DNA of 63,028 nt, filler included, from Rhabdomonas costata (lineage: Eukaryota): assembly GCA_019059605.1 (NCBI GenBank). It is 56 parts of 56 records of this genome, joined end to end, with 100 filler letters (N's around TTAATTAATTAA, not from the genome) between each part and the next. Parts side by side here need not be neighbours in the genome. Positions count along the whole stretch, not along the records: positions 47,353 to 48,376 come from JAHMHO010032732.1; 55 more parts are not named here. One strand, 5' to 3'. Positions 4,520 to 49,319 of the stretch are shown here, in pieces (the stretch's first letter is position 1; each line of letters begins with the position of its first letter). Both the position numbers and the translations under genes were made by a program. The notes under the pieces were generated by a model. That model did no database searches, had not been told where the DNA came from, and saw nothing but the letters and a program-made list of their open reading frames with translations.

Positions 4520-5460
4520 TGTGGGGCCAGGTGAGATACGGATGGCCGATAGAGTTAGTGGGGGAAGACCCCTGGTGAGACATAGAGCCAGGACACTGGA
4601 GGGAGGCTGCATGGAAGGGGAATGCGTGCATACGACCCTACTGCAGAGATTCAGGTGGTATGTTTTCGGAGTTTTTCAGAGGAAGAAGGATGCATCCACA
4701 GCGTTTTCCAGAGTTTTCACAGGTAAAAGAGACAAGGAGGCCGAGATTTCAGAGAATGTTTACAGACAAGGCCTCAGCGGATGCAGGCGGAGAAGACGGC
4801 CAGTGTGGTGTGTTACACAGCGGCAGTTTGAAATTTCATGGTCACTTCTTTTGTCCAGGATTTCAAATTTTACGTTAGGTGTTGAAGAAAATGAAAAAAG
4901 TTGTCAGGTCGTTTGTTTTCCAGAGTGTTTTTCTCGTTACTTTCGCCTTTGTTGTTACTGAGGTGCCCCAAAAGAACCACAGCAGAGCCGCAGGCCAGAG
5001 CCTAGAGGAGACCATGAGGGCCCTGCAGAGGGTAGAGATGGCGGTGGGTTTGCAGAGCGTGAGTGGTGGGAACGCTGCAGAGTTGCACAGGACAGGGTGT
5101 GTGCAGTCGTGTGCCACTTCCACATCCTTCTCTTTGGGTCGAGATCGTGGAAAGGCATAAGCGGCGAGACCCGCCCAGAGGAACACTTCACAGCCCAGAT
5201 TTGTGAGCCATAAGGCCCGACAATTCGACCACACCTGTGTCCAGAGCAGCCCACCGCCAGAGACACACGTGCATCTCACCACACCCCGTCATTTGCAGAA
5301 GCTGTGCCCCCAAAGGTTTCCAGATTCCAAATCGGCTTGGTGAAGGCAAGTGGTCGGAGCCCTCCCCACACATTTCAGAAAGGCGAAGCTCGAGAAAAGC
5401 AGCTCCAATGCGACCACCGGGAAGCGAAGAATGGAAGCCACGGTCTAGGTGCGAGTCACC
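4520..5460 (+). repeat. Dispersed repeat family, copy 1 (possible LTR or non-autonomous element)
   Basis: Colinear, clearly homologous to the reverse complement of 61111-61901, with an extra ~160 bp at ~5095-5255; no conserved ORF. Confidence 0.85.
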
Positions 5461-47352: not shown

Positions 47353-48370
47353 CGCCAGGTCTTCACCCGAGAAGGATACCGCGAGCTGCTGCACACCCAT
47401 CCCGCCTACCTCACGTTCATGAAGGTATTCCCCGTGTGTTTTGTTTTGATTATGGATTCGGCAGTGTGGTTTTACTCCGCTTGTGTGTGGGGGGGCGCCA
47501 CAGAACCTGATGAGCGTCCGAACGATTCTGTACATTGGCTTCAGCTTCACCGACGACTACCTCAATGAGGTGTGCTTTCCTGGCGCCCCAGCATTTCGCA
47601 GTTAAGGGGTGAGGAGGGAGGGAGGTGTTTGATGTGTTTTTTGTGGCCTCTTAGATCCGGAGCGACGTGATGGCGATGAAGGTGGACAAGGGCCTGGACA
47701 CCAGCACGATGGCCTACGCCATTATCAATGACAAGGACAAGTCCCACTGCACACACTACCAGCAACATGAGGGGGTGACCTTCCTGACATGGGATACAAA
47801 ACGTTATGGCTTCGGGGTTGTGGACCGGTACCTGGGCAGCCTGCTGGTTCTGCCTACCCGCTTTCCCCCTTCCCTTCGATTCGTGACATTCAATGTGAAA
47901 CCCAACCAGCCACCTGTGGGCATTCTTTCTTGCTTGCGCTATCGTTTGGTTTGTGTCAGCAATTCGAGTGGGGTTAATTGGTTTCTCTCCCACCCCGGAA
48001 AAAGTCCTCGGCCGGCACTTTTTGCTGGAACCAGTATAATTTCCGGTTGACATAACCTACCCGCCCTCCTCTCGATGCAGATAGGGTCTTCTGACGCGCG
48101 CGCAGGAGAGGGGAAAGTCATTGTATGCATTGCATTTTGCATATTGCAAGGAGGGTGCATTCCGCACAAAAATGGAATCGGTCTCAAAAGTGATTTCTAG
48201 ACTTTGACCTCTGTGCGCACGCAGAAAATGACGGAGCTTAGCGCGGCGCTGAGCGGGGCGAAGGTCATCTTGTACCAGCCCACACAGATGGCGGGCAAGC
48301 CGGGGATGTCGGAGAACATGGTCACCCTATCCACGGAGCTGGAGAGGGAGCTGAAATCTCCGCTCTACAA
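47353..48370 (+). CDS. SIR2-like (SIR2_2 type) domain protein; exons 47353-47424, 47504-47569, 47655-47846, 48225-~48370
   Basis: Phase-0 GT-AG splicing gives VFTREGYRELLHTHPAYLTFMK-NLMSVRTILYIGFSFTDDYLNE-IRSDVM...AYAIIND...HEGVTFLTWDT..FGVVDRYL; TILYIGFSFxD is the SIR2_2 C-terminal GxS motif. Confidence 0.8.
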
Positions 48371-49319
48371 CACCACNNNNNNNNNNNNNNNNNNNNNNNN
48401 NNNNNNNNNNNNNNNNNNNNTTAATTAATTAANNNNNNNNNNNNNNNNNNNNNNNNNNNNNNNNNNNNNNNNNNNNGGTGGGTGTGGTGCATAGCAAAGG
48501 CCAGTAGAGAAGCAAGTGTGGAAAGCAGGTTTTCACAGCCTCTGCTCCTAAAACTCTCTTTCTGAAGCCTCTACTCTGAAAACCTGCTTTCCACACTTGC
48601 TTCTCTACTGGCCTTTGCTATGCACCACTGCCTTCTCCAAAAAGCTGTCATTACGAACTGCCTCGCTTTTCTACTGCTCTCGCACAGACTTACGAATTTC
48701 TTGAACACCTTTAACGCCTCAACGGAATTTTGCTCTTTAAAACGATCTCCTTTGAGCTCCTCACCAACTTCTGCGACTAACAAAGCTTCCAAGCTACTGC
48801 AAAAATAATGTTCTGGATCACCAAGCTGTCTCTTATAGTTTCTACGACAAAACGTTCTTCCTACGTTTGCTGATCCGTTACCCCCTTTTCTACTATGACG
48901 GAGGATGAAATTCTGCCTCCGACGTCCTATCACTCCAACGGCTCAGCTCTTCAAGCTGATTGATTCTTACCACAGTATGCTTAATTTTATACGATTCGAA
49001 CCTTACATTATCTTTACGAAAAGCGTACACCATGCTAAACAAAACACGGCACACCACCTCCACAACAACATTGTCTACCGCTCAAAGTCCATCTGCGACA
49101 ACAAGAACGCCAAAGAAGGCAGTGCACTGGCGAAATTACTCTCTTCTGCTCCACTTGAAAGGTACAATACAAAGCAATAAAGACAACTCAACTCAGCTCT
49201 TCGTCCAACACTACGAAATTGTCTGCTATCTAATACGCTCTATTAAGCTCTACGAAGTTCCTTCTCCACAACCCACCATAACCAACCACATGAGAAAACA
49301 AAGTAGTCCTGACACGGCC

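Follow-up and report, generated by a model that had tools for sequence, protein, structure and literature searches.

Does a single contig from a very fragmented protist genome encode a relative of the SIR2 NADases of bacterial antiphage defence, and if so, to what kind of protein does it belong? We addressed this question for contig JAHMHO010032732.1 of the euglenid Rhabdomonas costata (assembly GCA_019059605.1), which occupies positions 47353-48376 of the analyzed window, a stretch of 63,028 bases assembled from 56 pieces of 1024-1037 bases each with N...TTAATTAATTAA...N linkers between them. An earlier note, made on this DNA without database searches, had read the contig as four exons of a SIR2_2-type gene resembling immune sirtuin NADases. 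Our analysis shows that the gene fragment fills the entire 1024-base contig, which is almost certainly part of a nuclear, spliced and expressed R. costata gene for a multidomain protein of the defence-type SIR2 family. The corresponding full-length protein, termed P0003 here (1858 residues; RCo054904 in EukProt EP00906), carries a SIR2 domain preceded by a WWE domain and, far upstream, a predicted macrodomain fold, and followed by a flavodoxin/CheY-like domain. We consider it reasonably probable that P0003 is a nicotinamide adenine dinucleotide (NAD)-consuming effector gated by ADP-ribose-type ligands, an explanation that is weighed against its alternatives below.

Gene structure and transcript support

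The four exons on the contig correspond to P0003 residues 1575-1732, with 157 of 158 positions identical. Joined, they give the P0003 string ...ETIVFTREGYRELLHTHPAYLTFMK/NLMSVRTILYIGFSFTDDYLNE/IRSDV...GSLL/KMTELSAALSG... (slashes mark junctions). GT...AG boundaries and tblastn of the transcript-derived P0003 agree on the following structure, bearing out the four phase-0 exons of the earlier note:

47353..47358, + strand: 3' end of an upstream intron, noncoding; acceptor AG at 47357-47358; the tblastn match begins at 47359, and P0003 reads ...ETI/VFTREGY
47359..47424, + strand: exon E1, 22 codons, VFTREGYRELLHTHPAYLTFMK; P0003 1575-1596, 100% identical; GT donor at 47425
47425..47503, + strand: intron 1, 79 nucleotides, GT...AG, phase 0; from sequence, P0003 and tblastn
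47504..47569, + strand: exon E2, 22 codons, NLMSVRTILYIGFSFTDDYLNE; P0003 1597-1618, matching across the full exon
47570..47654, + strand: intron 2, 85 nucleotides, GT...AG, phase 0; from sequence, P0003 and tblastn
47655..47846, + strand: exon E3, 64 codons; P0003 1619-1682, matching across the full exon
47847..48224, + strand: intron 3, 378 nucleotides, GT...AG, phase 0; from sequence, P0003 and tblastn
48225..48376, + strand: exon E4, at least 50 codons, leaving the contig end; P0003 1683-1732 against 48225-48374, 49 of 50 identical

One detail of the earlier reading had to be corrected: the first six bases (cgccag), taken as coding for RQ, are the end of the upstream intron. The gene is intron-containing and expressed, as had been proposed, with the spliced peptide sitting inside a transcriptome-predicted protein. 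According to the genome report, the R. costata assembly was made from amplified DNA, is very fragmented and was too fragmented for gene prediction, and 39,456 proteins were predicted with Transdecoder from a Trinity transcriptome instead of from the genome (PMC8219788). Because the RCo proteins derive from this transcriptome, P0003 provides RNA-level evidence for all three complete introns.

The exons divide the protein along recognizable lines. E1 encodes the SIR2 segment directly after the catalytic HG motif, E2 holds the most conserved motif of the family, T[IVL]LYxGFSF[ST], and E3 covers the final third of the SIR2 domain (AYAIIND..., HEGVTFLTWD). Intron 3 lies approximately at the boundary between the SIR2 and C-terminal domains, with SIR2 structural matches stopping near model residue 397 (P0003 1686), and E4 opens the flavodoxin/CheY-like domain. 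When exons were searched singly against Pfam, E2 reached SIR2_2 at an expect value (E) of 0.0085 and 16.6 bits, under the cut-off, and E1, E3 and E4 gave no SIR2 match. Searching large protein collections with E3 (query P0001, 65 residues) returned P0003 at 100% identity (E 5e-35), together with 24 more relatives at E<=1e-3.

At the contig end, codon 48369-48371 (aac) encodes N against T in P0003, and the two final bases misfit the next P0003 codon (F). This end mismatch (48369-48376) could reflect an allelic difference, an error of the amplified-DNA assembly at the contig end, or the beginning of one more intron, perhaps a non-conventional one. The one residue mismatch and the two terminal bases are also what a non-euglenid origin of the contig, that is bacterial contamination, an assembly artefact or a pseudogene, might leave behind. 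Such an origin gains some credit from the amplified-DNA, fragmented assembly and from the genome report's statement that 12% of the proteins with a robust placement grouped with prokaryotes (PMC8219788). We nevertheless regard it as very improbable: three complete GT-AG introns are exactly removed in the transcript, the reading frame is open across all four exons, and full-length orthologues from Euglena longa and Petalomonas fall into one clade with P0003 (support of 94 in the SH-like approximate likelihood ratio test, SH-aLRT).

The SIR2 domain is of the defence type

The SIR2 domain spans about residues 1375-1686 of P0003. Against Pfam, the protein scored 63.7 bits with SIR2_2 (PF13289; cut-off 24.5, E 2.6e-17, residues 1545-1661), and the classical SIR2 family was not listed at E<=1, in agreement with the SIR2_2-type assignment of the earlier note. 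The SIR2_2 cut-off was also passed by 11 of the 13 relatives scanned. PADLOC models pointed in the same direction, with LmuA at 1.1e-20 and ThsA at 8.5e-17, and in a PDB sequence search all seven matches were ThsA or Kom SIR2 proteins (best, EcThsA 8wc0, E 1.9e-6). We then turned to structure. An AlphaFold2 model of residues 1290-1858, built from a 20-row alignment, was of good quality (predicted local distance difference test (pLDDT) 82.4; predicted template modelling score (pTM) 0.86), and its best Foldseek match was SeThsA (1.5e-10). Across the structure comparison, defence-type chains scored about twice as high as classical sirtuins.

The P0003 SIR2 domain is thus of the defence type ('SIRim'), nearer to ThsA, DSR, Kom and FAM118 than to SIRT, Sir2 or CobB. 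That P0003 could instead be a classical sirtuin, acting as a protein deacylase, is very improbable in view of the missing Pfam SIR2 match, the twofold difference in structural score and the fact that no classical sirtuin was found among the seven PDB matches.

The GAG, TTN and HG motifs of the domain are intact. Two of them had been expected upstream of the contig and are indeed present in P0003, outside the contig, as TTNYS (1511-1515) and IQIHG (1562-1566); in the alignment to ThsA, TTNY and IQIHG stand opposite TTNY and YKMHG. Mutation of either N112 or H152 is reported to abolish the NADase activity of ThsA (PMC7272460). In our 20-row alignment (A2), the Asn of TTN, equivalent to ThsA N112, is kept in 15 of 15 covering rows and the His of HG, equivalent to H152, in all 15 aligned rows, with fragment P0011 set aside at HG, where it is unaligned. 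The GxG motif, FIGAGFC in P0003 (1399-1405), appears as GAG or GSG in each of the 12 covering rows. In the same line, conservation between P0003 and its Euglena longa orthologue peaks around the active-site motifs.

Between TTN and HG, the euglenid-type SIR2 domains have a CxC...CxxC cluster (P0003 1519-1535), present in seven of eight rows beginning LCxC; relatives of the WWE type and the bacterial type do not have it. It may form a zinc knuckle, in a place other than that of the zinc module in classical sirtuins; judged by its sequence, P0003 shows no CxxC...CxxC module after the catalytic HG.

ADP-ribose-related and receiver-like domains surround the SIR2 domain

Immediately before the SIR2 domain, P0003 carries a WWE domain (PF02825; 25.2 bits against a cut-off of 21.1, residues 1319-1365), which extends over about residues 1303-1370. 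WWE domains bind iso-ADP-ribose. The combination of WWE and SIR2_2 recurs in P0006 and P0010, two shorter proteins from different sources whose WWE domains scored 34.6 and 33.8 bits, respectively. Searching the PDB with the P0006 WWE region gave weak hits to the RNF146 WWE domain (E 0.2-0.83), which were the sole non-SIR2 matches.

Far upstream, at about residues 250-580, Foldseek on a predicted model identified a MavL/Larg1-like macrodomain fold. All 16 rows listed at ranks 1-24 were MavL, Larg1/Lpg0081, CG3568 or CG2909 (best E 4.7e-5), and a protein-language-model search independently directed us to MavL clusters with a score of 0.90. As modelled, the N-terminal domain is MavL-like in fold; we do not claim it as a member of the MavL/DUF4804 family. 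MavL-class macrodomains are described as arginine-specific ADP-ribosylhydrolases, which bind and remove Arg-linked ADP-ribose (PMC10951314).

The region between the macrodomain and the WWE domain contains an internal tandem duplication of a domain of ~180 residues (P0003 900-1080 against 1088-1275; hhalign 97.7%, E 2.4e-12), of which the Euglena longa orthologue has a single copy. Segment 622-795 matched no other repeat (hhalign 0.1-1.8%). Ankyrin repeats were detected in the central region of orthologues, and none in P0003 itself by Pfam at E<=1. The C-terminal domain was also considered as a fourth copy of the central repeat and rejected: BLAST self-comparison was empty, and hhalign against the repeats gave 0.1-1.8%.

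The further domain that the earlier note had seen beginning after SIR2 turned out to be a flavodoxin/CheY-like alpha/beta domain (about P0003 1689-1858), located where ThsA has its SLOG domain. The predicted two-domain model, comprising SIR2 and the C-terminal domain, superposes on BcThsA. A wide structure search with the SIR2-containing model matched its C-terminal domain to receiver and B12-binding folds; at the sequence level, this domain gave no sign of SLOG.

Relatives in euglenids and bacteria

Orthologues were found in five euglenids. The Euglena longa protein (1870 residues) has the same layout and is 40% identical to P0003 end to end, and a Petalomonas relative of 2831 residues has macro, WWE and SIR2 parts in common with it. 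Notosolenus and Jenningsia contributed fragments of orthologues. R. costata itself encodes a paralogue of 2322 residues that shares the macro region, as well as one further fragment.

We next searched one genome per prokaryotic species for the subfamily motif T[IVL]LYxGFSF[ST], which yielded 24 bacterial loci (L001-L024) from Myxococcota, Acidimicrobiia, Verrucomicrobiota, Gemmatimonadota and Binatota. Their SIR2 domains are 28-39% identical to that of P0006 and 30-35% to that of P0003. Most of these genes encode 392-498 residues, with about 110-165 residues past the SIR2 domain (for example L013, 3962-5305, and L008, 3860-5302). A profile of this C-terminal part matched PmrA in the PDB (E 1e-5); 11 sequences scored below 1e-3, ten of them named response regulators and one 'Transcriptional regulator'. 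Scanned individually against Pfam, four of ten C-terminal domains gave a sub-threshold Response_reg match (E 0.0075-0.12), one gave OKR_DC_1_N and five gave nothing. In L011 (about 4847-5341), the C-terminal part could not be aligned with the other 18, which suggests a shift of the reading frame or a misassembly.

No conserved neighbour genes were found across the 24 bacterial loci, the largest non-SIR2 cluster being confined to four related genomes. At two loci inspected, the neighbours were VWA/pentapeptide, FG-GAP and pectinacetylesterase genes, and PADLOC matched nothing there except the SIR2 gene.

A maximum-likelihood tree of 36 SIR2 domains, computed from SIR2 ranges cut from the sequences, with bacterial rows picked by the one motif and ThsA, DSR and other types absent, separated a group of 11 eukaryotic or unplaced sequences (SH-aLRT 85), with the euglenids together in one clade (94), from all but one of the 21 bacterial sequences (82). 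The tree is rooted on very distant sequences and therefore supports no claim about the direction of transfer. As far as sequence comparison goes, the bacterial stand-alone SIR2_2 plus receiver-like proteins appear to be the nearest prokaryotic relatives of the euglenid family, and to form an apparently uncharacterised family of their own.

A putative NAD-consuming effector and its alternatives

In the explanation that we favour, and hold to be reasonably probable as a whole, P0003 would act as an NAD-consuming effector gated by ADP-ribose-type ligands. Its SIR2 domain would consume NAD+ as a glycohydrolase, like ThsA, DSR2, KomC and FAM118B, a step that we consider likely by analogy with these proteins. 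The WWE and macro domains would read poly- or iso-ADP-ribose, ADP-ribosylated protein or an ADP-ribose-derived signal and thereby gate the SIR2 domain; we put this ligand gating forward tentatively, at somewhat less than an even chance. The C-terminal receiver-like domain would serve as a regulatory or oligomerisation module in place of the SLOG domain of ThsA. An immune or stress role is possible.

Several observations weigh against this explanation. First, P0003 has Ser in place of the NxD Asp (TTNYS, residue 1515), and over the 15 covering rows this position is Ser in six, Thr in one, Asn in three, Asp in four and Glu in one. Ser, Thr or Asn is found in the euglenid and WWE-bearing relatives, and Asp in the bacterial-type rows and in the bacterial L013 protein. 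With this Asp replaced, the chemistry could therefore differ from that of ThsA. Second, the macrodomain is supported at the level of fold: the model of the macro region is mediocre (pLDDT 66, built from four sequences), and P0003 has no Pfam MavL or DUF4804 match at E<=1. The signature motifs given for MavL are [VIL]xGxGxGx[FWY] and WDxx[SA]xPGN[DE][FY][FWY] (PMC10951314); by eye, only GLGNF and SD...GNxW of P0003 resemble them. Third, the possible immune role draws no evidence from genomic context.

Finally, the C-terminal domain shows no link to receiver domains at the sequence level. In a search of PDB sequences, its profile gave just two matches, to NrdH (E 0.0078 over 43 columns) and to a peptidase (E 0.11), both judged spurious, and a protein-language-model search returned nothing usable. 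An initial hhalign comparison with the bacterial receiver-like domain gave 96.5%; this value dropped to ~1% when the bacterial-type rows P0025 and P0032 and a shared linker at the SIR2 end were removed, and the claim of sequence homology was withdrawn. Rows P0025 and P0032 alone reached 99.2% against the bacterial C-terminal profile. We still lean towards descent of the euglenid C-terminal domain from a receiver-like domain, since the two agree in position and in class of fold, and since those members that branch earliest within the eukaryotic group keep a recognizable form.

The substituted NxD position bears on two alternatives. In the first, the SIR2 fold would be catalytically dead and retained only as a scaffold that binds NAD or ADP-ribose or supports assembly. 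Loss of the Asp in the euglenid and WWE-bearing relatives and the Cys-rich insertion between TTN and HG in the euglenid rows would fit this idea. However, the GxG glycines, the Asn and the His-Gly are kept in every covering row, the conserved residues are the equivalents of N112 and H152, both essential in ThsA, and conservation between Rhabdomonas and Euglena longa is strongest precisely around the active-site motifs, which makes a dead scaffold quite improbable.

The main rival accepts an active enzyme and assigns it a different task. Here, P0003 would be an endogenous ADP-ribosylation hub, with SIR2 as writer, WWE as reader and the MavL-like domain as eraser, serving the signalling of DNA damage or stress rather than immunity. 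Three NAD/ADP-ribose-related domains in one chain would suit such a hub, and both the replaced Asp and the Cys-rich insertion could accompany altered chemistry. Precedents for the writer and eraser are at hand: macrodomain-linked SirTM sirtuins are described as protein ADP-ribosyltransferases (PMC12700824), and MavL-class macrodomains as arginine-specific hydrolases (PMC10951314). Against this, where the matching PDB entries name characterised SIR2_2 proteins, these are NADases, and the macrodomain is a putative eraser judged by its fold. On balance, we consider the hub unlikely, though a rival to be taken seriously.

The preferred reading of P0003 as a ligand-gated NAD-consuming effector can also be taken further. 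The euglenid proteins might be giant one-chain analogues of Thoeris, with a bacterial-type SIR2 plus receiver-like NADase wired to a WWE domain and an arginine-ADP-ribose-type macrodomain. The bacterial SIR2 plus receiver-like module would then have entered eukaryotes, or have been common to them, and the sensing of ADP-ribose polymers, ADP-ribose signals or ADP-ribosylation by microbial toxins would lead to NAD+ collapse. We regard this extended version as a long shot. If it held true, eukaryotes would possess an immune or death switch that works by NAD depletion and without a TIR partner.

Context of the contig in the window

The sequence flanking the contig in the window is unrelated to it and therefore holds no information on the genomic neighbours of the gene. 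In tblastn of P0003 against the window, no contig other than 47353-48376 gave a match. At the start of the next contig, we noticed a 55-nucleotide inverted repeat (98% complementary; arms at 48484-48538 and 48574-48628, spacing 35 nucleotides), which may have arisen as a hairpin-type chimera during whole-genome amplification or be a genuine palindromic element.

Novelty and relation to known systems

Defence-type SIR2 proteins in eukaryotes have already been reported, so that the 'undescribed' of the earlier note cannot be upheld for the category: according to a 2024 preprint, SIRim domains occur in 19% of eukaryotic genomes (EukProt v3), in five clades and often in fusions, with Macro among the partner domains (10.1101/2024.09.18.613514). 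P0003, too, is already part of a public protein set (EukProt). What is unreported is its domain layout. In the literature searched, which left aside most subscription journals, nothing in print was found on the combination of WWE with SIR2_2, on the bacterial SIR2 plus receiver-like family or on the euglenid family. 'WWE' has no mention in the main texts of 10.1101/2024.09.18.613514 and PMC12700824, and 'euglenids' none in that of the former. The preprint's SIRim tree is described as leaving out proteins without key NxD-motif residues (10.1101/2024.09.18.613514); given the replaced Asp, P0003 may therefore have been dropped from it.

Defence-type SIR2 NADases are a recurring bridge between bacterial antiphage systems and eukaryotic immunity, and within the literature examined their eukaryotic members have been studied in vertebrate FAM118 proteins only. 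The euglenid family adds a clear, intron-bearing and expressed example in Discoba. It ties SIR2 physically to two domains of the ADP-ribose-reading kind, suggesting a possible route by which eukaryotic NADases might be switched on, and it points to the uncharacterised bacterial SIR2 plus receiver-like proteins as nearest prokaryotic relatives. A layout and a lineage are thereby added to a known category, which itself remains unchanged.

Among the known systems, the macrodomain proteins MavL, Larg1 and Drosophila CG3568 (DUF4804 class) differ from P0003 in that the latter has no Pfam match to the class and shows signature motifs that are partly recognizable by eye. The SIR2 NADases KomC (Kongming) and DSR2 work with other partners and sensor parts, and their similarity to P0003 lies at the level of fold and weak sequence resemblance. 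FAM118 proteins, termed vertebrate-specific sirtuins and, for FAM118B/A, characterised in 2025 (PMC12700824), are eukaryotic members of the category; compared with FAM118 ('SIRanc') and SIRim proteins, P0003 additionally has a WWE domain, a far-N-terminal MavL-like macrodomain and the C-terminal receiver-like domain. The bacterial SIR2_2 plus receiver-like proteins share with P0003 the motif T[IVL]LYxGFSF[ST] and the two-domain order, and adjoin the eukaryotic/unplaced group in the tree. WWE, macro and ankyrin parts are missing from them, the NxD Asp is retained (as seen in L013), and their C-terminal domain has no profile similarity to the euglenid one (~1%).

ThsA, the SIR2 plus SLOG effector of type I Thoeris, was both the best PDB sequence match and the best Foldseek match to P0003. 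Its SLOG domain binds a cyclic ADP-ribose isomer, its partner ThsB has a TIR domain, and ligand-induced filaments have been observed for ThsA as well as for FAM118B. P0003 conserves the Asn and His on which ThsA depends, and in both proteins a small alpha/beta domain follows directly after SIR2. P0003 is not classed as a ThsA. Its second domain fits receiver and B12-binding folds, its NxD Asp is Ser, and it is four times longer, adds WWE and macro domains and is encoded by a spliced eukaryotic gene.

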